A stretch of 63,509 nt of DNA, filler included, from Kipferlia bialata (taxonomy: Eukaryota): assembly GCA_003568945.1 (NCBI GenBank). It is 4 parts of 4 records of this genome, joined end to end, with 100 filler letters (N's around TTAATTAATTAA, not from the genome) between each part and the next. Parts side by side here need not be neighbours in the genome. Positions count along the whole stretch, not along the records: positions 1 to 18,543 come from BDIP01000472.1; 3 more parts are not named here. The stretch is one strand, 5' to 3'. This document shows positions 721-61,801 of this stretch, piece by piece. A model generated the notes under the pieces. The model had not been told where the DNA came from and made no database searches. It was given only the letters and a program-made list of their open reading frames with translations. Position 1 is the stretch's first letter, and the number at the start of each line of letters is the position of its first letter. The position numbers were made by a program, and so were the translations under genes.

Positions 721-3183
721 CTAGTGACTAGAGCGTGTGCACACCTCCTCCACCGGTCCAAGTGTCTCCACCACCTCCACCTCCATATCCTCTGAGGCTA
801 TATCCACTGGAAGAAGGGACTCTACACTACCCTTCTCTCCCTCTCCCTCTGTCTCTGTCTGTTGGTGCTTCTCCCTCCTCTGTCTCCAGCAGTTGATGAG
901 CGAGACTACAATGCTGAATGCAACAACTAGGACCAGGCTGACATACAGGATGTCCCTTCTGGCAAGGGCGGCCCAGGAGGTCCTAGGAGTAAGATTACGT
1001 AATACCATGAGAAAATTCTGCATGTATACTTGTACGTAGATACAGAATATTCAAAGAGGCCTGAATGTGAGATAACCCTCGTCGGACGTATACATAAGTG
1101 TGGAGTATAGGAATGAAGTATGGAGACAATGATTAAGTCGAATACGTACTTGTGGTAGAACCCCTGTATGCTCCTCTCCCCCTGGATCATGCCCTGGCCT
1201 GGGGGTCAGTCACAAGAAGTACTCATCGGTTACATAGAGTATGGACTAGAATACATATCCAAGTGTCAACCTCCTTCACATGCTATTGTGAGACCAAGCC
1301 CCACTGTATAAGTCTCATTACTATACCTGCCAGAAGTGTCAGGAAGTATTCCTCGGTTGTGTAGTAGCTGATGTAGGACTGCCTGCTGAGGAATGTCTCT
1401 ATGCTCAGGACAGGCTCAGAGACAGACTTGGATACTGTACTGTCTGTACTGTCTGTACTGTCTGTACTGTCTGTACTGTCTGTAATATCTGCACTGTCTG
1501 TACTGTCTGTACTGTCTGTATCAAGTGTCAGTCTGAACACCCTGGCCCCAGAGTGCACGGCACGGTACGAGGAGAAGTCGGTCTTGCCAGCTGGGTTTGA
1601 GAGAGGTATTGGTGGATATATAGTGACACTATTACAATATGTATAACATTTATGTATATCAATAGGAGGAGAAGTCAGTCTTGCCAGCTTGGGGTTAGGT
1701 ACTGAGGGATAGGGATAGGGGAAAAACAATTATAGTTACTCTTCTGATAATATTCTACTATAAACAGCAGTGCATATACTAGTAACATATGTGTATGTAT
1801 TGGATCCATACTCACCGTAGCAGAGGGACACTGGCCTGTCAGCACTGTCAGGTTGCACAGCCAGGGTGGTCTCCAGACAGTAGTTGTTGAGGTGGTCTGG
1901 GGTGAGAGACATTGTGGTATATGTACATACAGAGAGAGGGTGAGTAACCTGTAGATGTGGATGAGATGGTCTCTGGGAGACAGGTGAATAGCGGGTGAAA
2001 ACGGCACTGAGAGAGAGAGAGAGACATGTTTTTGGCATGTGACGTACCATGTCCCACACTGAGTACCCATGCATTGCCCATGGCATCTAGCAGGGCATCA
2101 AGCACATCTAGAGGTGAGGGATACATACACATACATACAAATGTGTATATATAGTCACAGAGAGAGAGAGAGATTCATCCAGCGGGGCACACTGGAGAGA
2201 GTATCGGATGGCCATACAGGCATCATTCTCACGTACCATTCTCCTTGGACGACCAGCACACATCCTCGCCCATCTTGCCATAGAACCTGAGATGAGGGAC
2301 TTCGAAGACGAAATGAAGTGGATATGTGTGAGCACATAACGTAGAGTATATATCACGAATCACGTACGCTGTCTCTGTGTCATCGTCTGGTGTCCACTGG
2401 GCGGTGGGGACTGACGTGAGACAAACACAAATGTAATGTAGTACTACCACTCCTATGACTATCTACAGGGTCCATCATGCTTAGAGTACACAGTAAGTAT
2501 ATATATATATATATATATAGTATCCACGTACTGTGCATGAAGCCCATGCTGGGTGGTATGGCCCCACTGACTGGGTCTGTGTAGGTGGATATGACATCAC
2601 GCACCCAGGACACCTGAGAGGTGAGAGAGATGTGTGCCTGGAATTGACTTTGATATTGTATCACCTATATATATAAATATATATATGTATATGACATCTC
2701 GAACCAGGAGACCTAGTGGAGAAGAGAGAGCCACGGAATATACAGAGTATCTATACATAGGCCAACTACACATGGGACCTGTGTATGCTCCAGACACCCC
2801 CATCTGGTAGCCTCTCCCTCGCACCAGTAGGAGTGGGTGTCGAAGGCCCAGACAAGGGCACCCACGGAGTCTGGGGTTAGTATATAAAGAAAACTATTGA
2901 ATATACATCTCTATCTCTAAACATATTTTGTCGTAAGTAGAAAATATTACTCTTGATATGATATATACAGCCACTCACACTGTTTGAGATGAGTATATAT
3001 ATAGATCATATATATACTAAAGAGACATACGTGTATATATACATATCTACTTGACCCTGCCTCTGTCATGATGGGTACACGCCCATCTCTCTCTCTCTCT
3101 TAGATCATATATATATACATGAAATATATATATAGTTACCCACCAGCCCCAGCCTCTGTCATGATGGGAGCCACATATTATCA

Positions 3184-3219
<36 letters not shown>

Positions 3220-4140
3220 ATATTTACATATCTATATCCATACCTGACCCTGCCTCTGTCATGATGGGCACCACATAGTCAGAGCCACGGCCCTGGGGGT
3301 GAGGGCGTGATCACAAAGCAGTATCTATGAAAAGACTATTGTGTATAAATGTAATATTAAAATGATCGCACCTCCGTACTGTCTGGTACTCCCATAGTCC
3401 CTAGGAACAGTGTCTCTGGGTCATCTCCTCCACACTCATCAAGCAGGGTCTGTAGCAGTTCCTCCCTTGCGTGAGGAGAGCTGAGTGTGGTATAAAACAT
3501 TCAATATACACATAGTATATATCATACATACATACAATATAGTATATTCACATGCGGTACCTCCACGTGTATGGTATCTCCCCTGCTGCATCACCCCTGG
3601 CCTTGTCGGACTCGTGGTTGCCTAGGGGTTAAGAGGTTATACAAACATTCACATACATACTATAAATATATATACATATATATATATGTAGTGTGGTGCA
3701 TATCGATAATGGAATATATATAAGGAACTCACCGAATGTGACCATGTATGGCAGTCCCAGCTCCTGTGTGACATACTGGCACACACGCACATGACCTGTC
3801 TTGCACTGGGGGTGAGGGGAAGCACCGTACATAAACAAGTGTATATAACAAATACACACACACACACATACACACACATACATATAGATAGATAGATAAA
3901 GAGAGATAGAGAAAGAGATACACAGAGAGCCCTATGTATAGATGCAGCTTAGTAAGCCAGAATGACTACCTGAGTGGTGGTGGACCCTGTGTACACGTCA
4001 AAAGAGAGGGATAGAGAGAGAGTAAGAGATACCGGCACATATATATTCATATCAACAATAGATACACAGTACCTGAGTGGTGGTGGACCCTGTGTACACA
4101 TCCCCTGTCACCACAACCATGTCGGCATCATACATCTCAG
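721..4140 (-). CDS. Calcineurin-like metallophosphoesterase, Dcr2/plant PAP14-16-28-29 type, with C-terminal TM helix (about 14 exons; 5' end with DxH motif missing)
   Basis: The spliced exons give the family motifs in order: DMVVVTGDVY (4073-4140), LPYMVTF|GNHESD, LVWAFDTHSY..WGCLEHTQ|VSWV, SMGFMH|IPTAQW, GEDVCWSS, VLSVGH|DHLNNYC..LCY|AGKT..GARVFRL. The last exon 721-982 encodes hydrophobic ILYVSLVLVVAFSIVVSLI and ends in TAG. Intron phases are consistent. Confidence 0.88.
1432..1520 (-). repeat. 9-bp tandem repeat (CTGTACTGT) encoding (Asp-Ser-Thr)n inside a phosphoesterase exon
   Basis: About 9 imperfect copies; the ORF track reads TDSTDSTDSADITDSTDSTDSTDSTDST. Confidence 0.9.
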
Positions 4141-4712
4141 CTGGGGGTGAGGGAGGATATCAATAATGAATATATATACATATATATATTTAGGGAGAGA
4201 GAGAGAGAGAGAGAGAGAGACGGAATAATAATGTCACCACAACCATGTCGGCGTCATACATCTCAGCTGAGAGTGAAGGATAGTATATATATCAGAGAGA
4301 GAGGATGGGGAGGGGAAGAGTAAGGATATACTATCATACATCTCAGCTGGGGGTGAGGGATTTATCATATTATGGACAGAGAGGGAGAGAGGGAAGGGCA
4401 GAATGGAAGAAGGGAGGATACTATAACCATTAGTGTCTCGCCATCATACACCCCATCTTGTAATATAGAGAGACAGAGAGAAGGGTGTCATTATAGAGTG
4501 CAGGTATTATTTGGAATGAGAGAGAGAGTTGGGGAGGCGAACGGGGTAAGGGGGGGGGGGGGGGAAAGGGGGGGGGGGGGGGGGGACTCTTCCAAGAAAA
4601 GAAAGAATGGGAGGGTGAGGAATACTTCAGATAAACAGAGAGAGATAGAGAGACATTGAGAGGTAACTGCACGGGGAGACACTGCTATACATATATACAT
4701 ATATATATATAC

Positions 4713-5559
4713 CTGGGCTAGGGGGTGCATCTGGGGCACCAACACCTGGGGACATGCATGCCTCAGACACCTCTGGGGGGTGAGGGGAGGACGCGCACAG
4801 ATATACACATTCCCCACTATATAACATGGATACAATACCTCTGCTGATGGGCTCTATGGGCATCTCCCCGTTCTTGACCGCCTCCTCCTGCTCTCTCTTC
4901 TCTCTCTCTGCCTCTCTGTCCCTCTCAATCTCAGCAGCTATCACCTGGTCCACTACTCCTAGAGTTAGAGGTACTATCAGTACTATTGATATATCCAATG
5001 TGTACTATGACATATAATGTGTACATGTCCCGCTCAATCTCAGCAGCTATCACCTGGTCAACAACGCCTGCAGCGTCAGTACTCTCATTAATAGCACTCT
5101 ACATCCTAGACAAATGACTAATATATGGGAATATGAGTGTATACGTACCTGTCTCTGCCATCTCGAGGTATATACACTATGCTATTTATAGTGTGTATAC
5201 TATGAACGCTATCATTTATATATACTAATATACTGTACCCTACCTGTCTCTGCCATCTCGATGTATGCCGGGTGTCTGACCACATCCCTCATGTCACCCT
5301 CAACCACGTTGGAGGGCCTGAGGGTTAGTAGCATTAAGGTATATGTATATGTAGCTATACTAGTGTACACATATCCATAGATTAGTGTGATATAGAAACA
5401 TTTCCCTCATATCACCCTCTACCACATTGGAGGGCCTAGGATAAGGAATACATGTGACCACTCAAGACACAATATGTATAAATGTACTACTTGTATACCA
5501 TACCTAGACTGCCTGCCCTTCTTGAGCACTGGCTTCGGTGCATGGGCAGGGGGCAGGGG

Positions 5560-5597
<38 letters not shown>

Positions 5598-8500
5598 ATA
5601 TAAATATACACATATACCTTGACTGCCTGCCCTTCTTGAGCACTGGCTTGGGTGCATGGACAGGGGTATGTATATATATATATATATACTATACTAATGG
5701 TATACCTAGATTGTCTGCCCTTCTTGAGCACTGGCTTCGGTGCATGGGCAGGGGGCAGGGGGAGGTGGAGCCTCACCCAGTGCCTCTTGGACAGGAACAC
5801 GGTCTCACGCACAAGGGACCTGGAGGTAAGGACTGAACATACATATACATGTATGTATATACACATAGTCACGCACAAGGAACCGGGAAGTTAGATATAT
5901 GTTCAAATATGTATATATATATATATACCTTAACCTCTCTGGCTCTGCGTTGATCTCCTGCACTGTCTCTGTTCTGAGTGACACAGTGGGGGGTGCGGCA
6001 AGCATGTCAGGAGGGGGATCCAGGGACCTAGGGGTAAGGGAGAGAGGAAGGGGAAGAGAGTGAGGGGAGAGCATGTCGGGAGGTGGGTCCAGGGACCTGG
6101 GTTCTTCAAGCTATATGTACGACTATTCAATATACACACACCTTGCCCTCAGCAGCAGGCACCCGAGTGTCTCCATGGGCCAGTTGTGGTCACGGTCGGC
6201 CTGGGTCACCTGGGGGTGAGGGGGTGTAGATACATAGACACAATGAGTATACATAGTACTGTATACACATTCAGCACAATAGCACTCACCGCCCTATCAT
6301 TATTGCAGTCATCAGTATATATATGCGTATATAGTTGTGTACATACCGCCCTGTCATTGTTGTAGTCGAATGTCCAGTGTGTATAGAAATACGAATCTCT
6401 ATATTCATATATAATGTATATAGAATATATAATATATATAATGTATATATATTATACTACTAATACTCACCGCCCTGTCATTGTTGTAGTCGATGTCCAG
6501 AGGCACTGTGGGCAGAGTGACACCCAGCAGAAGGTGGGTGCACACATAGGACACAGCGTATCTGGCAGTAAGCATATATGTATATATACAATAGAGTATA
6601 TATATATATATGTGTATATATATAGATATATATTCATATACAAGAGTGACACCCAGCAGAAGGTGGGTGCACACATAGGAGACAGCATATCTAGGGTGAG
6701 CATATATGTATATATTTATATATATACATCTGGATTGACCACATACCTGACACTCCCACAGTTGTGCCTGGCTACACAAGTACATGTGGAAGAGAGTGAG
6801 GGTACGAATATATGATGGAATACCATACATGACACTCCCACAGTAGTCTGGTTTAAATACAAATATTTTATATACCATACCTGACACTCCCACAGTTGTG
6901 CCTGGCCACATATGCTGCATACATGGACAGGAATGTGATGGGGGGCATGTGGCCTAGGAGGGCTAGGCACTGAGGTTAGAGTGAGACATATAGAGAGAGG
7001 GTAGAGAGAGAGAGAGAGAGGTGGGGGCCAAAGATGCTTATGTACTAAAGTGGTAGGTACAATGATACGCCTGATATATATATATTGGAATATTGACAAA
7101 TACACTGCATACCTGGTATATGGGGTGCACTGAGAGTGCCCCCTTGATATATATGAATATTTATAAATATTTATATTAATTATAATATAATATACAATTA
7201 CTACAATAGTTTACAAATAAATATATATAATTAGTATGCATAATACCTGGTATATGGGGTGCACTGAGAGTGCCCCCTTGAGGGCCAGGTCAAGGGCATG
7301 CTTCCTATCCTCTCCTTCTCCGTCTCCCTCTGTCTCAGTCTCCACACCAGGTGGTTCCATCAGGGAGGCATTGCTGCCAAACAGCACAGACAGAAGAGAG
7401 TCGTCACCTAGAGTAAGGTCCTGGGACTCCTCGCCCTCAGAGGCACTGGGGTGAGTGTATATAGATAGTAATATATATATACACACCACTCAATCGTTGA
7501 CACATGTTGTGTATATGTAGATATACCTCTCCTCACCCTCAGAGGCACTGGGGTGAGTATAAATTGCAACACACTACTCAAATGTCCACATATATATAAT
7601 AATACAAATACTAACGTGTGTGTGTGTAATAGTACAATACCTCTCCTCGTCCTCTGGCTGTATGAGCTGGGCACTGGGCACATGTATATATATACACAAC
7701 AATATACAGTATGTATATATAGTAGTACCTCTCCTCATCCTCTGGCTGTATGAGCTGGGATGGGCTGAGTATGAGGGTGGGCAGAGGGAAGGGCCGGGTG
7801 GTCAGGTGCCGGAGGCCACGGACCTGGGGTGAGGGTACTGATACAAATATATCACTTATGTATAAATACATATATATACTCACCTCTGACACCAGGTGTA
7901 AGGTGCTGTTATGCAGTCTGACAACAAATTTTCAAATGTATATAAGACTTATATATACATATATGCATATACCTCTGACACCAGGTGTATGGTGCTGTTC
8001 TGCAGTCTGAGGAATGCAGCCAGCAGTGCATCATGGCCCCTCTTGGACTGACACATCATGGACTGGTCGCCCTATGATAAGTCTATCTATATTAATATGT
8101 AAATATATATATGTATGTATATATATATAGAGAGAGAGACACTCTTGGACTGGCACATCATGGACTGATCACCCTAATAATTGGGATATATACGTATACA
8201 TATAAGACATCATGGACTGGTCGCCCTGAGGGTTAAGTATAAGAGTGATATGTATATGGGGGGGGGGGTAATACTGATTACGTAACTCAGAGATATGAGT
8301 AACTACCTGTGTCTTTGGCGCCTTCTGAGTCTTCTGCCCCTTCTTGGCCTTGCCACCCTTCTTGGGGGTGTTCTCGGTCTTGGCTGGGGTTAAGGATACA
8401 TATAGTACAAATACACATATAGTATATATCCATATGCACCCACCCTTGGCTGCCTTGGGGTCGTTGAGTTCCATGATGCTCTTGTCCACCAGACGCTGCA

Positions 8501-10159
8501 TGTACCTAAGGGGTGAGAGGGGCATATTCTATACAATCGTCAATGCATAGATGGATACATAGTACAAGGGTGAGTGTATGCATACTATGTACATTCGCTA
8601 CATTCGCTACATTCGCTACATTCGCTACATTGAAGAATACAATAATATCCTCACAAACCTCTCGGCGCTGTCCCTCTCCTTGACAATCATGCGCACAGAG
8701 GCAATGCCCTGGGGGTCAGAACACTAAGAAATCAAACACATTACTATTAAGATACTAGGGTATACACACACACACATATATATATATATATCCTAGTAGG
8801 GTATGGGCACTGAGGAAATGCCCTGGGGGTCAGACCACTTAGAGCACCACTATATATATACACAACTATCGCTCTACCAAACCACCCTCTATATCAATCA
8901 ACAAATGTATGAACTCACCGAGGCCAGCTTCCTGAGTCTCTTGAGGTATGGTAGAGCAGCATATATTCATCTGGATGTATATGTATATATGTATGCATAT
9001 ATATATATATCTACTCACCGAGGCCAGCTTCCTGAGTCTGTTGAGGTAGAGCAGTGCTGTCTGGGGCTTGGACAGCATGGAGAGAACACACTCCCGCTCG
9101 ACATCGGGGAATCTAGGGTAAGAGGTAGAGTACATATATAGAGGGAGGGGGGCATGTAGAATAGAATAGAAAGAATGGAGAGGACACACTCCCTATGGAC
9201 ATCGGGGAACCTGATGGATAAGAGAGAGAGATTCATCAGTATAAAGGCACGACACACTCCCAAGTATATATAACATACCCTAGGATATCCCAGAGTCTCT
9301 TTATGGATGCCACTGTCCTGGCCAGTGGATACATTGTATATATGTATATAGTACATGTATATATATAGTATATACATACCCCAGTATGTCCCACAGTCTC
9401 TTGATGGATGCCACTGTTCTGGCCAAGGTATATATATTGTATATATATATATATATATAGAAGAGTATACATAGTATATACTATATACAGTGATATATAT
9501 AAACACACCCTAATATGTCCCACAGTCTCTTGATGGATGCCACTGTCCTGGCGAGAGGTGAGACAGCACGCATCTGGAGGGTGCCACCCTGTCTGGAGCT
9601 AGAGGTTAGAGAGGTATATATATAAACAGAGACAGAGAACAACGGGTAATACATATGCAGGGTGAGAGTAACATGTATAGGGAGGGTACCACCCTGTCAG
9701 GAGCTGGGTCAGCATATTAATATATATATACTTGAGAGAGAGAGGGAGAGAGAATATGTCAAGAGATGGTCACCATACCTGGCCCTGGTTGCTCTGCCAC
9801 TGACAGGTCTGTTGGCAGTGATATAATACCATATATATGAAAACTCTACATTATACTTTACATATACTATAATGTAATATACCTGGCCCTGGTTGCCCTC
9901 CCGCTGACAGGTCTGTTGGCAGTACGAGAACTGGCACGGGAGGTGGATCTGAATGGTGAATATATAGAGAGCACACACATATATATGTATATACATAGAT
10001 ATAGATCACCTGAATGGAGTTGTGACGTGGTCCCTGACCGATGACCCCACCAGCTGTGTGTCCTGTCTCTCTCTCTCCCCCTGCCGCTTCTGCTTGCCAG
10101 AGGCGTTGAGGGCACTGCGGGGGACGTGATAGTCTCTGAGGTGAGAAATAGATGAAAAC

Positions 10160-10193
<34 letters not shown>

Positions 10194-10248
10194 CAGAGGC
10201 ATTGAGGGCACTGCGGGGGACATGATAGTCCCTGATATTAGTTGCAGT

Positions 10249-10289
<41 letters not shown>

Positions 10290-10724
10290 ACAGAGGCATT
10301 GAGGGCACTCCTAGGCACGTGGTAGTCCCTGAGGGTAGTTGCAGATATATACAAATATATATATGAATACATATGTATACAGAGGGTGTGTAGGTGTATA
10401 TATATATACCCACCGTGTGTGCTTCATGCTGCCGCGAGGTCTGCCCCCTATATATACACATATATGATACACAATTAATGTATATATACCCTTACTAATC
10501 CCTGTACCTTGTGTGCTTCATGCTGCTGAGGGGTCTGGCCCCTGTCCCGGCCTGGGACCTGGCACCGGACCTGGTCCTGGACGAGGCACGGTCCCTGGGG
10601 TTAGTGTCAATGTATAGTATATACGTATGGAATAATACAGAAAGCGAACATCTGAAATATATAGAGACAGAGAGTTCTATGACCGAGGAGGCACGGTCCC
10701 TAAAGGTAAGTGTCAATGTATATT

Positions 10725-10769
<45 letters not shown>

Positions 10770-11864
10770 TACACTGCCCTGGTCCTGGAGGAGGCACGGT
10801 CCCTGGGGGTTAGACATGTATGTATACATGTTACCGATTATATATATATATATATATATATACCTAAACACTAGATCAGTAGCACAGGCCTAGTATGTAT
10901 ATATCGTGTACACTACCTCATAGTGAGTGATGCCGCCATGCTTGGCTTGACATTCCCTCTCTTGACAGGGGTATCAGTCACACCTCGGATGGGGACAGGG
11001 ACATCGCCAATGCGCCTGGCATTGGGGATATAATAGAACAGAGATAGAGTGTGTGAGTGAGAGAGGGAGTCATTGAGAGAGAAAGAAGGGTACCAATGTC
11101 ATCTTATCAACATGGATGCAAAACACAGGTCATAGGAGGGATACAGATACTGAGGAATGATATATAAAGACAGGGATGTGTCACTGACTTAGGAAGACTA
11201 GTATATGGGATATGTAGGGGTACGGTAAGGGGAAGAGACCCCCATGTAACAATGATACATGTGCTTGTTAAGTACAAATACATATCATCACATATTCACA
11301 AAGGCACTAAAGAATTGCACACAATAGGAAGTAGCTATGAATGTAGTCAGTGTGGAGTGTCATTGCACAGTACCCATACCTATCAAACACCAACAGAGAT
11401 GCCGGAATGTCCACTGGCCCAGGCACAGCCTCCAGCTGGTCATGCACCTCTCTCTCCATCTCCCTCTCCCTCTCCCTCTCGGGTCCCACCAGCCCCAGGG
11501 GGTTGGGGTCGTGTGCCCTGCGTGCTGACCGGGTCCCTGGCCTCCCACTCCGGCCCCTCTCCCTCCTCTCTATGGCACCCACTCTCCCTCTGTCTCTCCT
11601 GGTGCCTCCCCTGGTCACGGGTCTGCCCCCACGTCCAGTGGAGGTACCAGTCGCACCAGAGCGTGTCCTAGGGCGCCCTCCCCGGCCCCTGCTTGCCTTC
11701 CTGCTGCTCCTGCTCCCCTTCCTGGCAAAGAAGTCGGCCAGGGCAGGGTCACGCTTGGGGTTGTACTGCACAAGCCGGTCAGTCACCTTGACAGAGTTGT
11801 CAAAGCCAGCCTCACGGGCCGCTATGGTGTCTATGTACGCCTCATAACTGCGGGCACGCGACAT
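4713..11864 (-). CDS. Hypothetical protein, about 19 exons, Arg/Gly/Ser-rich N-terminus followed by a helical region; 3' end not found
   Basis: ATG at 11864 (MSRARSYEAYID...), first exon 11380-11864. A phase-consistent exon chain follows, e.g. LARTVASIKRLWDILG|FPDVERECVLSML, SLVRETVFLSKRHWVRL, GVVDQVIAAEIERD, EVSEACMSPG (4713-4772). The LWDILGFPDVER segment loosely recalls CCDC87/MAP65-type helices (weak). Confidence 0.75.
8590..8630. repeat. 9-bp tandem repeat ACATTCGCT x4 (intronic)
   Basis: Directly visible in the sequence. Confidence 0.85.
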
Positions 11865-12200: not shown

Positions 12201-12820
12201 GCATCCCTCACTGCACTGGAGTCCAAGCACGCCAGTCTCAATGAGAGGTATCACGCATGTGTATAATGTCATCAATGAGTGCACTCATATATGTATTCAT
12301 TTGTATGTGTATTCACTCTAGTATTAGTATTTGTTTACCACATGCACCAAGATGGTTATGTGTATAGAAGGACATATAGTGTTACCCTTCTCTGTGTGGA
12401 CTCCGGTGTCCTGTGTGAGACTTCATACTCTGCCACTCTTATATTTTATTGTACTGACCATAGATACTCTGGTGTCCTGTCTGAGCTGACTGGCAAGTAC
12501 ATGCTCTCATATACTTCTCTATAGACTCTATCTACGTTATATATATGTGTATATTCTCTACCTCTATCTTACCTCAGATACTCCGGTGTCCTGTCCGAGC
12601 TGACTGGCATGAGGGCAGAGTGGGACCAGAGGGAGAAGGAGGCACAGAGGTATGTACATATATATGTATATGTATATATAGTGATGTAGTATGTATAGTA
12701 TTTATATATATATTTGTGTGGCATGATGGAGAAGGAGGCACAGAGGTATGTATCTATATGTATATATATATATAGAGAGAGAGAGAGAGGGAGAGAGAGA
12801 GAGATATGTAGTATGTATAG

Positions 12821-12862
<42 letters not shown>

Positions 12863-14002
12863 GTGCATAGTGGGACCAGAGGGAGAGGGCACGGACTAAC
12901 ATAAATATACTGACCCCCAGCAATGCCCGTGCCCTCCAACAGCTCAAGAGGGAGAACGAGGATTTGAAGAAGAGGTATATATCAACATTACCTACACTAT
13001 TAGTGCTAGATATTAAGTATATGTTATATTCGTACAGCATATCACATATTTGTCCTATGCATATTGTCTCACCGCAGGGTGGCTGATAGCAAGGAGTACA
13101 CTCGCAAGCTACAGGCAAAGGTCCAGGGTGAGTGTTTGTGTGTATATTTTGTGCCAACAGAGTGGCATGACTCCCTCTCTTTCTCTCTATCCATATAGAT
13201 AGATTGATACCCTAACCCCCTAGTCCGTGCCCAGCCGAAAGGCATGGCAGACATCTCTCTCCCTCTATTCCTCTCTCTCTCTATATATATATACATGTAT
13301 ATATAAATCACTAACCCCCTAGTCCGTGCCCAACACAGTGGCGTGGCAGACCTCTCTCTCTCTATTTGAATGTAGTGTTACGTATACATATGTATACTAT
13401 GTATATGTTATATATATATATCACTAACCCCCTAGTCCGTGCCCAGCAGAGTGGCATGGCTGACCTCCTTGGCAAGATGCAGCAGCTGCAGAACGATAAC
13501 CAGGTGGGGACAAGATAACACATCACAATGCTTGATATTTAGTGCTGGTCTGTCATATATTTCTTTTGCATATTACTATAACTACTATTTCTACTTTATA
13601 TATTACACGATATACTGTGATATATACTCACCTCCATATACCCATCCTTAGGCCAAGGACGACATCCTGGAGTCACTCACTCGCATACTTCTCATTTAAT
13701 TATAATATGATATATATAGTATTTTTCTACTATTATTCCTGACCCCTTGGCCAAGGACGACATCACTTGATATGTACGATATATTATTCATTCTTGTAAT
13801 ACCCGATTATTCCCGAGTTGTATATTCTAATGTCCAGGCCAAGGACGACATCATCCTGGACCTTTAGATACTGTTGTTATCACCCATATTTACTTCTTAT
13901 TGTATGAATCACTTACCCCTAGGCCAAGGACGACATCATCCTCGAGGTGTAAGTATTATATGCTTGGCACTCAATTTCTATCATTATGTATATATATTAT
14001 AT

Positions 14003-14036
<34 letters not shown>

Positions 14037-14239
14037 TTATACTAATGTCCAGGCCAAGGACGACATCATTCTGGAGCAGGAGGACGAGGTGACAGACCTC
14101 AAGGCAGAGCTCACGGCACTGGCCAACGCACTTAGCAACACTGGTTAGTACATTTGTATATATATGGTTTCTATGTATATATATACACCTCAAGGCAGAG
14201 CTCACGGCACTGGCCAACGCTCTATCAAACACAGGTCAG

Positions 14240-14272
<33 letters not shown>

Positions 14273-15407
14273 GCATGTAGTTTCTATGTATATATATATG
14301 CCTCGAGGCAGAGCTCACGGCACTGGCCAACGCTCTTAGTAACACAGGTTAGCACACATTTCTCTCTCGCTCGCTCTCCGTCTCTCTTTCTCTATTGATT
14401 CGTCTTCTCACTCTTTTCAGAGGCCAATATGGGTCTCTCTGCCCCTCGGTCCCCCATGTCACCTTTCTCTCTATCTCTTTCTCTCTCTCTCCCAATATAT
14501 ATAGATAGATAGATGTCCAATGCCATACCTAACTCCGCAGAAGCTAACATGGGTCTCTCTGCCCCTAGATCCCCCATGTCCCCTGGGGCAGCCAGGCAGT
14601 ATCTGGAGCAGAGTCTCCTTCACAAGTGAGTGTAATGAATGTATATATATATATTAGTATTTATATGTGTATATGTATATATATGAGTACATATCTATGT
14701 ATGTCCACTGGGGCAGCCAGACAGTGTCTGGAGCAGAGTCTGCTGCACAAGTGAGTGTATTATATATATGCACACATTCATATGTATGTATGTGTGCATG
14801 TGTATATGTATGCATTCGTATACATTCTTGATACTCATCCCAGGCTCTCTGTTGCCAACCACTCTCTGGAGAGCATGCGTCTGCAGCTCACAGAGTCAGA
14901 CAGACAGGTATATGCTCTTATATTCTCTCACATTATTATATGATATATACAAGTATACATATATATGTGTATATATGTCATATACATTCAGCTCGCAGAG
15001 TCAGACAGACAGGTGTGTGGATATAGATAGGTAGATAGATGTATTGATACTGACACTAATAGTAAATGAATACGAAGCTATCTCACCCCAGCTGGAGCAG
15101 TCCAAGAGCCGCTACCAGGCCATCAGGGCAGAGTTCCAGGTACATGGAGTGTCTCATTATTTATACATGTATATTATATATATATATATATGTACACTGT
15201 ACATATATATATGTATATATATATATATATATGTGTGTATATATCTTCCAGGCAATCAGGGCAGAGTTCCAGGTATATATTTCAGTGTATATACAATTGT
15301 GTATAATGTGTATACAGTGATATATACACATTCCTACCCATCAGGACAATGCGGCTGACAGGGCCAAGGCCCAGTCCGAGAGGGACACAGCCATGTTCGA
15401 TCTCAGG

Positions 15408-15438
<31 letters not shown>

Positions 15439-17989
15439 CCTTTAGTTTCTTATAGTGGATAGCGGACTATATATGTATGCTGACACCAGCAATGCTCTGG
15501 AGGCTCTGGAGACCCTGGAGGCCGAGAGGGAGAGAGAGACTGCTGCCTGGGAGGAGGAGAGACAGGCTGAGAGGGAGGAGAGAGAGAGAGAGTTAGAGGA
15601 GGCCAGGCAGGAGAGAGAGGCAGAGGTAACGACCGCCATCTATATTGTGGAGTTCTATATAATCATTAACATGTAGATTGAGCAGCACTCCGAGCAGCGT
15701 CTGACTGATGCCGAGTCCCTGATCGCACAGGAGGAGGAGCTGGTGGCACTTAGAGCCAAGCTGGAGGTATATCAATGTATATTTTNNNNNNNNNNNNNNN
15801 NNNNNNNNNNNNNNNNNNNNNNNNNNNNNNNNNNNNNNNNNNNNNNNNNNNNGAGGGCTAAGCTAGAGGTGTAATATATATGATCAATATATAAGTATAT
15901 ATAGTGTATATATATATTCGTGTGATATATTTCTAAACATGAGGAGGAGCTGGTGGCACTTAGAGCCAAGCTAGAGGTATATATATACATACTCACATAT
16001 ACGTTCCGCTATATTATATACTCAGTCTTTTGTCCTAATAAGTGTTTAAGAATTGTACACAGCAACCTATTACCTTGTCCACCGAGGCTGCCCTGCCCTG
16101 TGCCCAGGAGGAGTGTGCATTCATATATATATATATATGAATATAGAGAGAGTTATATACATACATACATATACAGTTAACTCCTAGGATACCGAGGCTG
16201 CCCTCTCCTCTGCCCAGGAGGAGTGTGCCTCCCACAGACACACGGAGGAGACACAGACACAGCACCTGAAGGCAGCTAACGAGGTAGAGTATATATACAG
16301 TGTGACTGTATAAACATATATATACAGTGTGACTATATATAGAGAGAGTGGCATATGTATAGACACACGTAGGAAACACAGACACAGCGCCTGAAGGCTG
16401 CTAATGAGGTAGAGTATATATACTATAGCTACTTCTAGAGAGAGAGGGAGAGAACACCGCGGAGACACAGACACAGCACCTTAAGGCTGCTAATGAGGTG
16501 TACACTGTGTATAGACTATATGGATACTGTAAGTTAATATATGTCTATACTATGTCACTGACATACCTAGGCCCTCGAGGAGCGCCTTGTCCAGATGGAC
16601 GCTGAGCTGGAGGCCACGATGGGAGTACTCAAGGAGAATGAGGAGCAGGTATTGTATTATATAGTTGATGTTTATTAATAGAGAGAGAGAGAGAGAGAGT
16701 ATGAGGAGCAGGTATTGTATATGAATATATATGTAGGGTATTCTTCCTACCTTACCCCAGGGCCAGCGTGACCGTACTCAGTACGACAGTGACCTCAGGG
16801 CCTGTGAGGATGCCAGGGAGAGGGCTGTCGAGAAGGTTGCACACCTCGAGAATGAACTCGAGAAGACCAAGCAGAGGTATACATCTGATACTAATGTATA
16901 TTTTTATATTGTTAATCATTTATATTCTTTATACACTGATTTTTCTATTGATGTATCTATGATTGTTATTGCTCCTGGAGACAGAGCTAGAGAAGACAAA
17001 GCAGAGGTATATATATGTGTGTAAGTATATGGATATATGCCTCTTCTTACCCCAGACTGGGCCTCATGAGGCAGACACTGCTGCAGAGACTGAGGTCCAC
17101 AAAGCCTGCTACTGCTCCTAGGAGAGAGGCCACTCAGGTATAGTACAGTGAAAGATAGAATACAAAGGCTTTAGTATGTAAATTGTGGTGTATATATATT
17201 GTACTGAGTCTACTGCTGCTCCTAGGAGGGAGGCCACATTGGTTGGTATTCCCATTTGTTTAGGAAGTGTGTGACTCTCAGACGAGACTCCTGTATGCAT
17301 GAGTGTACATAATACTCCATCCAATTCTCACCCCTAGGCCCCTGCCCGCCAGTCTGCACCAGTGCAGTCACAGCCGAGGTAAATAGTAATATATATATTA
17401 TAGAAAGAGATATATATAGATAATACATTATGTTAGTGTATGTGCCAGTGCAGTCACAGCCAAGGTGGGTACCTCTATACGTATCTATATTTATTAATAC
17501 ATTTAGTAATATTGATACATATGCAGACTACGAAGTAGCATCTGTGCCTGTCCAGTTCCAGCCAAGGTGGGGTTATATGTAAATGTAAATATTCAGATAT
17601 ATTTGTGTTCCAGCGCACTGTACATACTGCTATGGTACACTATAGGTGTTCATATTAGTATTCTTACCCTAGGCCCAAGTCCCCTGTGACCACTGAGAGG
17701 GTGGTGCATGCCATAGACGCAGAGGGGGGAGACAGGTAGGGGTATTGGTCCCACCTCATATTCATTCTCTCTCTCTCTGCCTCTCTACATATACATATAT
17801 CGCTAACATCTAGGGAGGGTGTCCCCTATGAAATCATGGACTTTGACTTCTCTCTCTCTCTCTATATATATATACATACATGTCTTTAATCTTACCTCCA
17901 GAGAGGGTGTCCCGTATGAGATCATGGACTTTGACTTTGATGGAGACGACACAAACACAATGTCTCTCATGGACCTCGCCAGGGGATAA
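12201..17989 (+). CDS. Long coiled-coil protein (about 19 exons; start exon unresolved)
   Basis: Phase-consistent exons: ASLTALESKHASLNE, NARALQQLKRENEDLKK, AKDDIILEQEDEVTDLKAELTALANALSNT, NALEALETLEAERERE, ALEERLVQMDAELEAT. The last exon EGVPYEIMDFDFDGDDTNTMSLMDLARG ends at TAA 17987-17989. Confidence 0.82.
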
Positions 17990-18687: not shown

Positions 18688-20860
18688 CCTGCGTCCACTG
18701 CGTTGTGCCACTCACTGGCCAGGGGGCCCTTAAGTAGGTCACCGATGTTCCTGGGTGTTAGATATCCACCATTTCGGTGCAATACAATGGTGATAGTGTA
18801 TATCATTACTATCAATAGTGTACATGTAATGCAGGTGGGCCACTGAGGAGTGTACACCCAGCCCAGCATATACAGTCATACTTTAAATACTGTGACTGTG
18901 TAGGTATGTGTATATACCTTGCCCTCTTAAGCAACTCCACCACAGCCGAGTCTGCCCCATCTGCTGTGCATACATATAGTATACACACAATATATATACA
19001 CTCATAGTGTATACTATATATACGTACCTGGCTCTCTTTAGCAATTCCACCACAGCCGAGTCTGCCCCGTCTGCTGTGCATCTACCCAGTCGGTCGGGCT
19101 CATCCTCAGTGGAGCCTAGGTATCAGGATACAACGCATATATACAAGTAGTCGTTTTGAATGAGTGTATTGATACAATCCAAAGAACATGAGTATGAGTG
19201 GCACTGTTTCGCTGACTTCAATACAAGTAGATAGATAGTCAAGAGTACATTATTATAATCATATACCTAGTAACGATGTGAGTATGAGTGGCTCTGCCTT
19301 GCTTGCTGCCAGTTCACTCAGCCACTGCTCAATGCCCTCAGAGACACCTGGGGGAGTCAGTCACTAATCTAATGAAAACAGTCACTAATATAATGATTAC
19401 ATTCGCTCAGAGACACCTGAGGGTCAGTCACTAATCTAATGGATATATATATAAATATATAGCGCCGCTAGCTAATTGATACTGACACCAATCTACTGGA
19501 TTCTGACTTGGACCCATTGGGAACTAGACCAATTATAATGAGTGCGTTACGGATACCATCGTGTATTGTTACCTAGCCACACGTCAATGTCCAGTTCACT
19601 GGCATAGGTGGCCCCAGCAGGGCCATTCTGACAGGTAAGATAGTCTAGTACAGGAAACTCCATCAGCTAGCAAGAAGTGACATACCATAGGTGTGTATAC
19701 CTCTGTACTACGGATAGCGCATATAAACATGTATATATATGAATGTCTCTGGGCGCGCATACCTCTGTGTGTGATACCGCAGCCACTGTGGTTGCCTCAC
19801 TGCCCCTGACATTAAGGGTGTAGAGAGGGAATACAAAGGGTGTAGAGAGGAATATTGAGGCTATGCACAGAGAGGATGGACAAAGGTACATATACTAGTG
19901 TTGGAATGACCATAACAAGAGTTTAGATACCTATATATACATATACATATACCTAGATACATCTGAAAGTGTTGGTGGGAACTCCACTGTCTTCTGGTGG
20001 GCAGGGGCGGCCTGAGGTTAGTATATATACATAGAGAGAGAGAGAGAGAGATGGAGATGTAACTATATATATATATATAGAGAGAAAGGATACTGTCTTC
20101 TGGTGGGCAGGGGCGGCCTGGGGTCAGTGTATATGAATCTCCGTGTAGAGGAAGATAGAGAGGGAGAGAGAGGGATGCTCCAGTCTTCTGGTGGGCAGGC
20201 TTCATACAGGAAGACAGAGCGTATGTATCTAAGTAGTACCGTTGGAGACACGTGTGTACATAAATTCATGGATATATATATAATACATATGGAGAGAGAT
20301 AGACAGAAATATAGATGGTACCTTTGCAGTTGGTGACACTTGGGTGGACACGGGGACTGGGGTGAGTATAGAACTAGAATCAATCTCTGTATTTGTAGTA
20401 AGTACGTTGGAATAATCATGATCCATCGGCATAATGTACAATTAATGGGTATAGTACCTGGCGTGATGCGTCTCTTGGCCCCTGGGGTGGCACTAGTGCT
20501 CAGCTGGCTCTGGGGGTCAGGTACATACAACCCTATACGTTGTGACTGTACATATAGTATACATGTAAATATCAATACCTTAAGATCCAACAGAGAAGCT
20601 CTGAGAGCACTAATATCATACATTAATATCCACAAATATTTGCAAAGTATCATATAAAATACCTGCACATGCAGTGGCCAGAAGGGGACAGGTCACATAC
20701 ATACACACGCATATATATATATATATATATATATATACGTATATATGTATATATATATAAGTATACTAATACCTGCACGTGTAGGAGTGATGCCCTGACC
20801 GTGGCCAGAAGGGGACAGGTCACATGGAGCAGAGTGGCCTCGCTACATGGTTAGCTAGAT

Positions 20861-20898
<38 letters not shown>

Positions 20899-23800
20899 CA
20901 GGGTTATATAGAGGCAGGAGTAGAAAGAGATATCCACCCAGGTAATTCACCACACAATATCATTATATCTATATATACAAAGAGATATAGATAGGGATGG
21001 AGAGAAGGACACACTACCTAAACACCACGTTCTCACAGACCCTGGGCAGTGACACCCTGTTGACTAAAGGGTCTAGGTAGGCACGGTTGGTGTTTCTCTC
21101 ATAGGCACTGAGGACGGAGCCTATTGGTCAGAGTAACTAATATATCAATACACGTACATATGTGAGACAGTCCCCGAGGCATAACAAGTCACCTTGCAAA
21201 GTACCCTTTCTTAATACATATCCTCATCGCAACAATATTGTGGTCTTAAACAAGTGATTGAATAAACACTCAAAATATATATTCATATCAAAAACAGATT
21301 CATATACTAAGCAACGTGAACCTGTGACATCTCTCTCTGAACTCATATTACTTTTGTACACGTATTCCACTATACATAATGTATACGTATATTTAAACAA
21401 TTCTTGTACCTGTGACATCTCTCTTTGCACTGCTCCGTAAATTATTGATACCTAATGCTATACTTGCAGTAAGTATATATATACACTTAAAGTAAGTAAA
21501 TATATACACTGATATTGTACCTGTGACATCTCTCTTGGCACTGCTCTGGCCTAGAAGGGAGGTGCCCAGGCCTGGTGTGAATACAATATACACATGAAAA
21601 CTATATGCATATATATATAGAGAGAGAGAGAGAGGGAGAGAGAGGGAGACAGAGACAGACAGAGAGAGAGAGAGGTTGCAAAAGCAGGGAGGTGCCCAGG
21701 TCTGGCATTAGAGAGACACCAGTATTCATTAGTAGTAAATATACATATGTCTGCTGTGTAATGTTATATCTGTTAAACGAAGTACCTAGCCTAAGACTGT
21801 CAATCTCTGACAGTAGCACTGCATACTGGACCAGACAGGCACGGGAGGCACCCTGAAGTCATTGGATGGAGGTCATAAGATAAAGGATATGGAAATACTT
21901 ACAGTTATGAGTACTACAACTCTTGAATATGTAACATATAGAGTGACACACAACATAAATACACATATATACTACTACACATATACCTCCTTTGGGTCTC
22001 TCATGTACTCTGACAGGGCACCCAATATATAAACGTGCTATATATATATATATATACATATATATATAAATACTGAATACAGATCATATATTTCACTGAT
22101 ACCTCCTTTGGGTCTCTCATGTACTCTGACAGGGCACATATACATATACTAGTATACATATACATACATATATATTTACACATATACACAAATAAATATA
22201 TATATATATATATATATACGTATACTACTACACACCTCCTTTGGGTCTCTCATGTACTCTGACAGGGCACTCCTAGTGGACACCAGGATGGCCTAGAGTC
22301 ATGCATCAACAATAATTAAGTATCGTATACATAGAAGTGTTCTAACATGCATTGCACTTTAGATATACATATGACAGTGCACTCCTAGTGGAAACCAGGA
22401 TGGCCTAGAGTCAGACACCAAATACTAATTAAGTATAGTATATACATAGCAGTGTTCTAACATGCATTGCACAATATATATACATATGACAGTGCACTCC
22501 TAGTGGACACCAGGATGGCCTAGGAGTGAGATGCATAATATACTATGGTACTGTAAACATATATGGACTAATAAATATATACATAAGACAGGGCACTCCT
22601 AGAGGACACCAGGCCTGAGGGTAAGGATGTATACATATAGCTATACATCCTATGTATACATGAATACGTGATAAGGAGAATATGGCTTCCGGTGGTATTG
22701 GTTAGAGGGACACGATAACCTGTAGACACATTCATATACAAAATACTTCTAGTTGCACCTGCAGTGTTGGGGAAAAGGCCCTCACTCCAAGGGCCCTGTA
22801 CAGCTTGGTCAGGCTGGAGGTGAGAATACATTGATAGTATCAATATACTATAATAATATATTAATAGTAATAAGAGTATATATTAACATATATTAATAAG
22901 GGCCCTGTACAGCTTGGTCAGGCTGAGAGTGAGATACTAAAAGATATATCGTTTGGGTAGCGATATTGCTACTACCACATAATGTGTATTCAGCCCGAAA
23001 CAGTTTTGTCAGGCTGTTACAGTACCTCAGTAGGGCTATGGTGCTTGGGAACCTCATCAGCAGGGCATAGAGGGAGACAGGCAGGGCATCCTGGTCCTGA
23101 CTGAAGGCCTGATACAATGAGACTAATCTACTGGTACCAGAGAGGGAGTATATATACGAGTGTACATGTATACATGTGTATGTGTATACATGTATATATG
23201 TATATACTAATACACATACCTGCAGTGTGCAAGGAAGGGCTCTGAACTGGTCAGACCTAGCTGGGGGTCAGATGTAAACATGTACAAACATTTATGTAAA
23301 AGAGAAGAGTCAAGACTAATCCAACGATCCTGTACATGGTGCAACCATGGGTACACACATACGTATATTTCAATACATAAATACTCACTCTGTCTTGTGA
23401 CTAGTCCAATGATCCTGCACAGGATGCACCCGTGGATGAGGATGTACTGGCCAGTGCTGAGTGTAAGTGGTGTAAACACATATACCCAAAAATAAATGTG
23501 TATATATGTGTATATACAGAGATAGAGAGAGAGAGAGAGAGATGCACACGTGGATGAGGATGTACTGGCCAGTGCTGAGGTCAGCGGTATATAGATAGTA
23601 TAGGGGGGCAGATGGAGAGAGAGAGAGGATCAAAGGATGAGGATGTACTGGCCCAAGTGTTGAGGGATATATATATATATATATATATATATTCATATAT
23701 TCACATATATACCCACCCACCCACATACACACAAACACACATACATATAGATAGAGGGAGAGAAAACCAGGGATCAGAATCAACTGTGTGTTATACGTTC

Positions 23801-26071
23801 CGAAATTGCTTCTCCATCGTGCACCACCCCCATACACACTCAATTGAACATTTCCATAATAGTTGGTATGTAGTATGGTATGTAGTATGGTATGTAGTAT
23901 GGTTGAATGTAGAATGTGTGTCCATACCTAGAGTGCTCTGCCTCTGCCTGTTCCAGTGCCTGAGGTGAGATATGTGAACAAGACAATCCGATTACATATG
24001 AAATATCTGTCTATATATATACATACCAGTCCTCGGCTCCAGTGCCTGACGGTGGAAGACTACACTCATATGTACATAGTATATGAATGGTATATACCCT
24101 CAGTGAGATAATATGTATATACTATACCTGCACTAAACACGTGCACAACTGCACTGTGAGGTCTGATGCAAACCCCTGGTGCAGAGAGGGGGCCAGGCTG
24201 GATATGACACTGAAGAGCCTAGAAGTAAGTTGCAAACATTAGCTAGAGATGCTAAGAAGTAATATATCAATAGAATATGTACACTATTATACATTTGTGT
24301 CTAAATGTGTAATCATGTGGTAGAGAGGGTGCAAGGCTGGATAGGACACTAAAAAAACTGAGGAGTCAGTAAAATACTACTTAGAAGATTCACATAATAT
24401 ATGTACCTATCTGCCGCTGCATCCGTGGCACAGTGCCCATACTCATGTCTAGTGGGACCCATCAGACGCTCCTCCATCAACCTGATGTTAAGGGTGTAGA
24501 GGGAGAGAGAGAGAGAGAGAGAGATGAAGCTCCTCCACCAATATAGCAATAAGGGTGTAGAGGGGGAGAGAGAGAGAGGACTCCTCCATCAACCTGGCAA
24601 GAAGGGTGTAGAGGGAGAGAACCGTGGCGGTGCATCTCTGGATCCAAACAGTATCTATGTAACTGTATACACTCACCTCTTTCTCGACATGGCACTCTGG
24701 TCGATATACTCATTTCTATCTATAATACTAAATACTACTGAATACTACTAAATACTACTAAATACCACTGTATACACTCACCTCTTCCTCGACATGGCAC
24801 TCTGACCGCCCTCGCTGTCTGGTGGTCAATAAGAGTCAACAGGAGATATACATACTTGACAATGACAGGGCTGCCCTGTGCGTCTCTGCCACCAGTCTCT
24901 CTCTCTCTCCCTCTCTCTCTCTCTATATATATATATATACATACCTAGAAGTGATATGGCCGCCCTGTGTGTCTCTGCCACCAGTCTCTCTCTCTCTCTC
25001 TCTCTCTCTATGTGTATATATATATATAAATATACTTATATACCTAACAGTGATATGGCTGCCCTGTGTGTCTCTGCCACCAGTGTCTGTATCACGGCAT
25101 TGGACCACTGGAGAGTGTCCTAGATATTATGGGAGTGGAGAGAGAGAGAGAGAGAGAGAGGAGTAATGTTGTCAGTATATAGAGGGAAGAGAGAGAGAGA
25201 GGTAATGTTAGACCACTGGAGAGTATCCTAGAATATAGAGGGAAGAGGGAGAGAGCGGAAGTAAGATATACCTCATTAGTGGTAGAAGCACTATTGTATG
25301 AGTATAAAGATCCTAACCTGCATCTTGAGTCTCAGCAGGATGAGGGACCTCTTCTCAGGGTCCTGGGGGGTGAGTGACAATAATACATTCATGTATATAT
25401 GAATAATAATAATAATGTGTATATATATATATACACGTCTAAACCCTTCTCTGGTCCTGGTGAGTGAAATCTCCCATTGAACTACAAATGTGTATACCAT
25501 ATAGGTAGCAAAGAGACACAGTTATACCTCCATTCTGCATGCCCCAGCCACCAGTCTGACCTCACTGTCAAGGGCACGGGTCATCCTAGGGTAAGGGTAT
25601 ATATATATATACACCATATAGCACACGTCTACTATCACTCTATATATCTCTTTGACCCGACTGTCAAGGGTCATCATCGGGTGTTACGACCAAACACATA
25701 TACGATAATACTACTAATGAATTTGTATATTATAGATTTGTATATACATATGAATATAGACCTCACTGTCAATGGCACGCGTCACCAAGCGAGATAAGGC
25801 AAAGGGGAATACAAATATACATATATAGTGGAGTACATAGAATACACATTTATACAACGTCAAGGGAACGGGTCATGCCAGGGGGTTAGCACTCATCTGA
25901 ATTCAATTCACAAATATTCATTAGCCAGATATATATATACATATATATATTTATTCATATATCGCAAGTGAACTCTCTGTACCTAGGTAGGGTCGGCACT
26001 TGGTAGAACCTCCTCATATACATTACAAACCACGAAACAACAATAGTGAATATATAAGTTGTAGTTATACC

Positions 26072-26109
<38 letters not shown>

Positions 26110-28967: not shown

Positions 28968-29001
<34 letters not shown>

Positions 29002-30367
29002 AGACTTAGTGATGTAGTCTCTGAGAAACAGTTCTCTACGGCCCTAGGGTGGGTATGCACAAATGTATAGAAAGAGAGAAGGAGAGAGAGAGTGTGTGTG
29101 TGTACCTTTGCAAGTGTGGATGAGTCAAAGTCAGTGGTTTCCGGGGTGGAGCCATCCTGCCTGGGGGTAAGCAGAGATGGGCGCAACATGCAAAGAAATT
29201 GTAAGGCGTATAGTATAGAGTATGTGGAACGATGTATTTACCAAAATACTGTTGCAATCAGTACAGTGCCTACACATACACATACACATATATATGTACA
29301 TTATTGTGGTTATATATCCCTGCACAGTATCCCCCTGGCTGCATATGTCACTTGGCATAGTATATATGTGTATATAGGCATATATGTATATACATACGAA
29401 CATATACACATATATACATTTATGTATATATATATATATATATATACATATATACCTGGACAGTATCGCCATGGCTGCATATGTCACTTGGCATAAAAAT
29501 ATATGAGTGTATATGTGTATATGTGTATACTTTTACATACATGTACTATATGTGTATACAATACATGTATTACCTGCACAGTATCCCCATGGCGGCATAT
29601 GTGACTTGGGCTGTGAAGTGCAGACGGTTCACCTGCCATTATTGGATGTAGAGGGGGGGACGGAGAGAGCGGGAAGGTTAGACACAGAGTACAGTAGCTC
29701 AACGTGACATTATCGGGTATTCAAATATACATATTCCACACTGTATGCCACCCCTCTCTCTCTCTCTCTCGCTGAATATACTAATATAGACACACATGTA
29801 ACACACACCATAGTTAGCCCCGCTGTCTCACAACTCTTTCCTTCTCTGCATACGTATACATATATCTGCTAATGTGTATATATTGACACACCTTATTGTA
29901 AGCCCCACATGCCTCACTACCGCGACCAAGGCCCTGAAAGTGAGGGTACTAACAATCCGACCACACCGTATTCACAACACATAATTACACTTATTCACAA
30001 AAATATACATGGTATATATATATATATATACATATATATGTCACTTGATCACTGACCGATATACACGACTCAATGGTCAAGAATGAAAAGAATCAATATC
30101 CGATACATGTATGTGGGTCGAACCGAATGCTCTTTCTCTCTCTCTCTCAATTAGCGAGATAGAGTAGTATATATTCATGCTAAATATACCATACCTGTGT
30201 ATGTGGATCGAACCCGAATGAGAAACTGGCAGGACGCTGGGGATAAGAGAGGGTAGAAAAAGGGAGAGAAAAACTGGCAGGACGCTGGAGATAAGAGTGT
30301 ATAGAGGGAGGGAGAGAGAGAGAGAGAGAAAAAAAAAACTGGCAGGACGCTGGAGATAAGAGAGGGT

Positions 30368-30422
<55 letters not shown>

Positions 30423-30598
30423 AAGACAAGAGCGGGACTCAGTAATTGACTGGTCTACGGAGTATGGAGAGAGAAGAATGAGAGTTCGTATATAGTTCAG
30501 AATATATATATTGGTGTGTAGCATATACCTTATTGAGCGTCTCTGATGCTGGGCTGTGTATGACATCGGAGGAGCCACTGAGATAGTCAATGGTGGAC
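18688..30598 (-). CDS. Large hypothetical, probably alpha-helical (HEAT/ARM-like) protein; about 33 short exons, truncated at both contig ends
   Basis: Continuous phase-consistent chain from STIDYLSGSSDVIH (30528-30598) through VNRLHFTAQVTYAAMGILC, FLCPFPLHCLCALAGCAASYSGPIP, LFSVISSLAPSLHQG, AFSQDQDALPVSLYALLMRFP and GASRACLVQYAVLLSEID to NIGDLLKGPLASEWHNAVDA (18688-18750). No family recognised. Confidence 0.78.
22268..22522. repeat. Tandem duplication of a roughly 115-bp unit made of an exon 5' end, its acceptor and intron sequence
   Basis: CACTCCTAGTGGACACCAGGATGGCCTAG...ACATATGACAGTG is repeated, with intron sequence also shared between copies. Confidence 0.85.
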
Positions 30599-55859: not shown

Positions 55860-56076
55860 TTACTGCTCCTGGTTCTGCAGCTCTGCCTCCTGTACCACAG
55901 GCACCATCATGGGGGCCTAACATAAGCTTATACATACATACTAATATACCCATATATATATGTATATACTCATATGTATTTCAATCTCGTACAGTAGTGG
56001 AGGGTACCATCATAGGGGCCATGGGCATGGGGACTAGGACAGTCTGGGGCACAAGGACAACGGGTGAGGCAATCTG

Positions 56077-56115
<39 letters not shown>

Positions 56116-56270: not shown

Positions 56271-56304
<34 letters not shown>

Positions 56305-60948: not shown

Positions 60949-60984
<36 letters not shown>

Positions 60985-61761: not shown

Positions 61762-61801
<40 letters not shown>

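Follow-up and report, generated by a model that had tools for sequence, protein, structure and literature searches.

Selection on partial exon copies at splice junctions in Kipferlia bialata

The locus and its six echoes

An exon of Kipferlia bialata is bracketed by six partial copies of its own ends, here called echoes. In one of them, a serine codon near the donor differs from its exon counterpart at all three bases and still encodes serine. The locus raises the question of whether such copies are dead tandem duplicates or lineages that have been under selection, and of how they arose. The window is the whole stretch of DNA that was analyzed (63,509 nucleotides, filler included), and all figures refer to four genes within it, named A to D (Table 1).

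The sequence-only reading placed four 5' echoes upstream and two 3' echoes downstream of exon 14053-14143, and direct reading and alignment found all six at the claimed positions. The 5' echoes start at 13652, 13750, 13838, and 13923. The 3' echoes end at 14234 and 14347, and GT follows each directly. The exon itself is flanked by AG and GT and belongs to the open chain of 19 exons and 477 codons that forms gene A, the product of which has a coiled-coil look by composition.

The codon run that had been claimed is also present. Echo 14189-14234 matches the exon over 10 codons and then reads GCT CTA TCA AAC ACA, where the exon reads GCA CTT AGC AAC ACT. Both encode ALSNT, with a triple-base change in the serine codon. 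Over its full exon part, this proximal 3' echo differs from the exon by six bases across five codons, and no amino acid is altered. Serine is encoded by AGC in the exon (14134-14136), by TCA in the proximal 3' echo (14225-14227), and by AGT in the distal one (14338-14340). Since the distal echo reads AGT, the switch sits on the proximal echo's own branch. The distal echo has three silent changes near its donor and one K>E change at its inner end. The two 3' echoes have a common upstream junction (14166-14223 versus 14279-14336, 93% identity).

Intron gain by tandem duplication is reportedly possible when a duplicated AG/GT in an exon becomes a new donor and acceptor. This route is out at the case echo, whose repeated part (14096-14143) contains no AGGT.

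Table 1. Gene models and echoes discussed in the text (positions in the window)
Feature	Position	Strand	Description
Gene A	12201..17989	+	19 exons, 477 codons open; 25 echoes used
Upstream exon, gene A	13436..13503	+	Ab initio and hand curation; own 5' echoes at 13212-13255 and 13309-13354
5' echo 4 (distal)	13650..13672	+	Acceptor AG and exon start; 3-nt deletion
5' echo 3	13748..13765	+	Acceptor AG changed to TG; 16 nt of exon
5' echo 2	13824..13860	+	14 nt of intron end and 23 nt of exon; one silent change
5' echo 1 (proximal)	13921..13946	+	Acceptor score 13.7 versus 3.3 for the exon's own; two silent changes
Complete exon (AKDDIILEQ...ALSNT)	14053..14143	+	Phase 0 to 1; serine AGC at 14134-14136
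3' echo 1 (proximal)	14187..14244	+	48 nt of exon end; donor GT at 14235; six silent base changes
3' echo 2 (distal)	14301..14356	+	47 nt of exon end; donor GT at 14348
Next exon, gene A	14541..14625	+	5' echo at 14418-14464 with silent changes only, including AGA>CGG
Gene B	1816..11015	-	31 exons, 868 codons open; echo-rich
Gene B echo	10334-10291	-	Five silent codon changes (six bases), zero replacing, including CGC>AGG
Gene C	18689..30597	-	36 exons, 745 codons open; echo-rich
Second serine-switch echo	27141..27203	-	AGT>TCA (27170-27168); proximal 3' echo of exon 27342-27266
Gene D	56008..63451	-	20 exons, 530 codons open; echo-rich

Echo anatomy in four genes

Gene models were obtained with a small self-trained gene finder, and the four used here were then curated by coordinates; their exons are predicted. 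None of the four models has an internal stop. The frame of gene D requires a GC donor at 61694 (-), after exon 61758-61695. Echoes were sought by local alignment of each exon to both flanking introns, with 14 nt of flank counted in the alignment score. The search yielded 154 matches, and the cut-off score was at least 30. Fifteen alignments below 30, one unanchored alignment, and two from an exon with coordinates off by two were dropped. The remaining 136 echoes, at 91 exon ends, were used. Echoes within 45000-55400 and below 1816 lie outside the counts.

At least one echo is found in 70 of the 102 introns of the four genes. An echo is a tandem copy of about 100 bp that contains a splice site and 15-58 nt of the adjoining exon. 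The 5' echoes carry the acceptor and the exon start, and the 3' echoes carry the exon end and the donor. Among alignments scoring at least 30, 138 of 139 are anchored at the expected exon end, as head-to-tail units. Unit spacing has a median of 100-104 nt and unit length a median of 102 nt (sd 22, n=134). The exon part never exceeds 58 nt, including in 24 echoes of exons 95-199 nt long. Unit length grows with the exon part (slope 0.75 +- 0.17), which disfavors a fixed copy-tract length. Introns with echoes have a median length of 289 nt, versus 123 nt for those without.

Arrays hold one to four echoes. In 19 of the 20 introns that carry both kinds, the order is nested, with 3' echoes first. 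The sole interleaved intron contains 7547-7527 (-), where a 5' echo is fused to a 3' echo as an in-frame 21-nt unit with both acceptor and donor. At 13923-13946 (+), a strong acceptor is followed by GT, and a possible in-frame micro-exon of 24 nt is predicted from the sequence. These two are possible exceptions to the one-splice-site anatomy. The echo at 27865-27805 (-) differs from exon 27736-27647 by an in-frame insertion of 9 nt and by several replacing changes, like a diverged allele.

Adjacent echoes have a common inner end (within 3 nt) in 20 of 45 pairs, versus 19% by chance, which indicates that arrays grow by unequal exchange. Inner ends have a partner splice site of real grade in 4/64 cases, versus 17% of random intron windows, and in 7/72, versus 19%. 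This scarcity fits a purging of copies that would form an extra exon. Duplicated, mutually exclusive alternative exons are out as an explanation, given the single splice site, the exon part of 15-58 nt, and the scarce partner sites.

The window consists of several joined scaffolds, with N runs around a TTAATTAATTAA linker at ~18545-18643, ~30909-31008, and ~44917-45017. The region 31000-43300 holds a WD40-like gene and the helicase KIPB_002715; its exons are long, and the repeat scan gave no echoes there. Dinucleotide repeats are sparse in this region, at 39-51 bases per kb versus 131-154. The long exon 37930-38964 is KIPB_002715, with 100% identity over the 201 residues searched. Another echo-rich gene lies at 45070-48323 (+) and includes young echo-echo duplicates of 69-99 nt with 91-97% identity (46101-46555). 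From a motif seen by eye, it resembles a cyclic-nucleotide phosphodiesterase; Pfam gave no match for it. Across nine pieces searched against Pfam, nothing was above the cut-off, and the only weak matches were to WD40, for 31990-32517. Protein searches with exons of genes A and B gave no match. In run X2, for which an RNA source is guessed, the word share was 0.21, and 0.18-0.23 is expected for exon words.

Selection on echo lineages

Exon and echo differ mainly at silent sites. The exon-echo pN/pS is 0.18 (95% CI 0.13-0.25, bootstrap over 91 exon ends), against a null of about 0.5 or more for a dead copy beside a protected exon. Pathway counting gives 0.20-0.27 for kappa 1-3. The low ratio is present in all four genes and is weakest in gene C. 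Third codon positions hold 195 of the 320 exon-echo differences. Base-specific mutation bias is out, as for each of the four bases differences are more frequent at 4-fold than at 0-fold sites.

Echoes could be ordinary dead tandem duplicates, in which the silent bias reflects the selection on the working exon only and the serine switch arose by chance. Junction-spanning duplicates are known from F7 and CBS, and the echo junctions adjoin dinucleotide repeats in 47% of cases versus 35% by chance. Echoes that have no splice dinucleotide also fit, since they look neutral (pN/pS 0.47, with 16 silent and 27 replacing changes). Against this stand the codon changes as a whole, 202 silent and 116 replacing (of 318), where a dead copy allows 39-44% silent. 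Two tests that are independent of exon protection also reject it at P<1e-6. Between echoes, where the null is 1, pN/pS is 0.27 (CI 0.17-0.42, 35 arrays), and the 0-fold/4-fold difference ratio is 0.32-0.37. Of the changes private to one echo, 45 are silent and 34 are replacing (497/1570 sites), against an expectation of 24% silent (P=4e-10). Given correct reading frames, the dead-duplicate null is refuted for the set as a whole, and dead duplication as a general account is highly improbable.

Echo lineages have been under selection at the protein level and at their splice signals. The acceptor AG is kept in 59 of 72 echoes (46 expected under the neutral null) and the donor GT in 58 of 64 (48 expected), with P<=0.0005, a count that carries a mild detection bias in its favor from the 14 nt of flank within the alignment score. 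At four-fold sites of all echoes, there are 38 transitions and 73 transversions, i.e., no transition bias. Its absence is consistent with divergence that is old or saturated, or with an atypical spectrum of mutations.

A serine switch between AGY and TCN is reported to require a tandem two-base change (PMC6872785). The sequence-only reading held that the AGC>TCA switch is very unlikely in neutrally decaying DNA. This is borne out by the echo-echo and private-change tests, as selection at some time. Among the 28 distinct multi-base codon changes, 26 alter two bases (23 replacing, 3 silent) and 2 alter all three. These two triples, the only ones in the 136 echoes, are AGY>TCA. The count proposed with the sequence-only reading therefore comes out in its favor within the window, at two serine switches and zero replacing triples. 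The second switch, in echo 27203-27141, also lies beside the donor, inside a run of seven silent codon changes with no replacing change. With the observed differences placed at random, 0.089 switches are expected (P(>=2)=0.004); once the pre-selected case is set aside, P(>=1)=0.085. The serine count alone is modest evidence, and the bulk silent excess carries the result. Either switch could alternatively be one short slippage event retained by selection.

Selection could also act on echoes in present use. Transcripts or rearranged DNA would switch from exon to echo inside the common stretch, and the echo end would be translated and selected. Such present use, which we consider unlikely, would explain together the intact splice signals, the silent excess, and the higher identity at inner ends. 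It agrees with 15 of the 33 echoes with three or more silent changes having no replacing change. Introns would then hold a living library of alternative exon ends, read by RNA template switching or by frequent DNA rearrangement, an idea that is likewise improbable. Most inner ends have no partner splice site, and fewer have one than by chance, so ordinary splicing cannot use the echoes. We know of no mechanism for such exon-to-echo switching in nuclear mRNA. The 136 echoes also bear marks of decay that speak against present use: 4 stop codons, 14 indels in the exon part, of which 10 break the frame, and 19 splice dinucleotides lost. The serine switch marks selection on the echo's lineage at some time and is in itself no sign of present use.

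Origin of the echoes and known junction duplicates

Divergence within an echo is graded. In long intact echoes trimmed of their innermost 8 nt, the silent rate falls from 0.47 to 0.35, 0.22, and 0.11 going away from the splice site (outer versus inner half, P=1e-5), and the replacing rate is flat at 0.03-0.02. Alignment trimming is out as the source, as the gradient survives removal of the innermost 8 nt. Near-site silent divergence is 0.30 in all intact echoes, and 0.47 raw or 0.73 corrected in long ones. Past the inner end, identity is at chance level (0.18-0.31).

The exon part and the flank of an echo have separate histories. Among 12 echoes that are identical to the exon over 18-33 nt, nine have flanks at the level of unrelated sites, and one has a near-identical flank. 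Exon-part and flank divergence show no correlation (rho -0.06). A plain slippage duplicate, in contrast, would age as one piece.

One account needs no second allele. The exon end and its echoes would alternate in the working slot of a single lineage by unequal exchange, conversion, and displacement, and selection would filter each copy that is reactivated. The common inner ends of adjacent pairs suit such turnover, as does the exon being equally or more often nearer to the distal echo (distal closer in 16 cases, proximal in 9, with 9 ties; not significant). Turnover with displacement, unequal exchange, conversion, and loss was simulated in 28 settings of 120 runs each. The simulated copies coalesced or decayed, giving exon-echo ratios of 0.34-1.6, echo-echo ratios of at least 0.41, and near-site pS of at most 0.15. 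The observed exon-echo ratio of 0.11-0.18 at pS 0.27-0.30 lies outside all 28 settings of this simple model, which includes neither reciprocal swap nor back-up selection. Single-lineage turnover is thus rather unlikely.

Since the simulation misses the combination of high silent and low replacing divergence, two alleles are the simplest remaining source. Echoes may well be exon ends that once worked in deeply diverged alleles and that recombinational repair left in the intron, a proposal that we give about an even chance of being correct. A break would fall within about 60 nt of a splice site, and repair would copy from a diverged homolog. Copying would begin in the exon, the sole alignable DNA, and then enter the non-matching intron allele. 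The new strand could not re-anneal there, and polymerase theta would join it to the broken end. One allele's exon end would take the working role, and the other's would stay as an echo. Unequal exchange within the repeated part would enlarge arrays and mix alleles. Copies that formed a complete extra exon would be purged; splicing would remove the remaining echoes together with their introns, and these echoes would decay. On this view, AGC and TCA would go back to two alleles that both worked and had long differed at this codon.

Parts of this route have been described elsewhere. Failed SDSA followed by PolQ joining yields tandem duplications in C. elegans helq-1 mutants (PMC8654963), and crossovers favor exons in the hyperdiverse Schizophyllum commune (PMC4209137). 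In the table of PMC8516963, K. bialata is listed with PolQ, Spo11, four Dmc1, five Rad52, and Msh4, and without Ku70, Rad51A, and Brca1; that table has no row for HelQ. The highest within-species synonymous diversity that we met in published reports is 0.20 (PMC4576712). Near-site divergence exceeds this value, so allele capture requires partners at the level of cryptic species, or long-separated homologs. Against capture, no second allele has turned up: metagenome scans found no relative, and KIPB_002715, the sole window protein found in the database, forms a cluster of one member. The variation of unit length with the exon part is also unlike a fixed copy tract.

Two alleles could enter the sequence in a more trivial way, if a short-read assembler had placed the alleles of a heterozygous or mixed culture in tandem. 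Silent differences, identical inner ends, and a ceiling on exon length near a k-mer of 55 would follow, and the echo unit is about one read length. The assembly is described as fragmented and as built with SPAdes from short reads of a monoxenic culture, and the main text of the genome paper makes no statement on ploidy (PMC5874029). The word share of 0.93 in run X1 is compatible with such an artefact too, because junction words are just 8% of the stretch. The echo junctions are seamless, however, whereas N runs mark the scaffold gaps in the window. One and the same junction is found in copies that have diverged from each other, namely the two 3' echoes of the case exon, and three other arrays have flank identities of 0.8-0.95. 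A single exon end can be present in as many as five versions, many echoes carry just 15-30 nt of exon, and the stops, frameshifts, and dead splice sites are unlike working alleles. An assembly artefact is accordingly quite improbable.

If allele capture is correct, the introns of one genome record other, very divergent alleles. They would provide evidence of sex or of exchange between homologs, and of extreme diversity, in a free-living fornicate, obtained in one genome and independent of population sampling, and a repair by-product would account for much intron length. The setting is an intron-rich relative of Giardia from a lineage listed without Ku and Rad51A. If echoes are instead in use now, they would represent a new way of making mRNA ends. 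Two questions become directly testable: what decides which splice site is used when up to five intact ones compete, and how recombination proceeds where exons alone align. Echoes also mislead gene finders, as the ab initio run called many of them as exons.

The genome paper counts 124,912 introns, and its main text does not contain the words 'duplicat', 'heterozyg', or 'ploid' (PMC5874029). The accessible text of a spliceosome survey does not mention such echoes (PMC6679479). A literature search, with subscription papers mostly outside its scope, found no description of them in Kipferlia.

The closest known systems are human. In the 37-bp VNTR of F7 intron 7, the units repeat the exon 7 end and the donor, an anatomy like that of 3' echoes (PMC1557585). 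Only the first donor is used, the VNTR is a single locus, and its donor copies are identical (PMC1557585). The F7 abstract reports no coding selection on the copies, whereas Kipferlia has diverged copies of both exon ends in 70 of 102 introns. The CBS 844ins68 allele is a duplicate of the intron 7-exon 8 junction and corresponds to a 5' echo; splicing uses the distal site and removes the partial exon that lies upstream (PMC2630376). Gene conversion between echo-bearing and plain alleles has been proposed there (PMC2630376). As described, 844ins68 is a single young event in which a harmful replacing change sits in the silent copy, contrary to the excess of silent changes in Kipferlia. Kipferlia echoes resemble F7 and CBS in being direct head-to-tail units in which a splice site is joined to part of an exon, but they are not dead duplicates with exon and intron parts of equal age.

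The helq-1 duplications of C. elegans are head-to-tail copies of the stretch synthesized before annealing fails (PMC8654963). They range from 100 bp to 10 kb, with a median of about 1 kb, and are not tied to splice sites (PMC8654963). The Kipferlia units are directly oriented, and their median of 102 nt falls inside this range, at its lower edge. The C. elegans duplicates are presumably identical at birth; the Kipferlia units, in contrast, are about 100 bp, anchored at splice sites, and diverged.

In Schizophyllum commune, recombination between very divergent alleles favors exons, as allele capture assumes (PMC4209137, PMC4576712). Its synonymous diversity of 0.13-0.20 is below the near-site divergence in Kipferlia (PMC4576712), and the abstracts of both papers report no junction duplications (PMC4209137, PMC4576712). 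What is new in Kipferlia, relative to the known junction duplicates, is the density of the echoes and the selection on the copies' own lineages.
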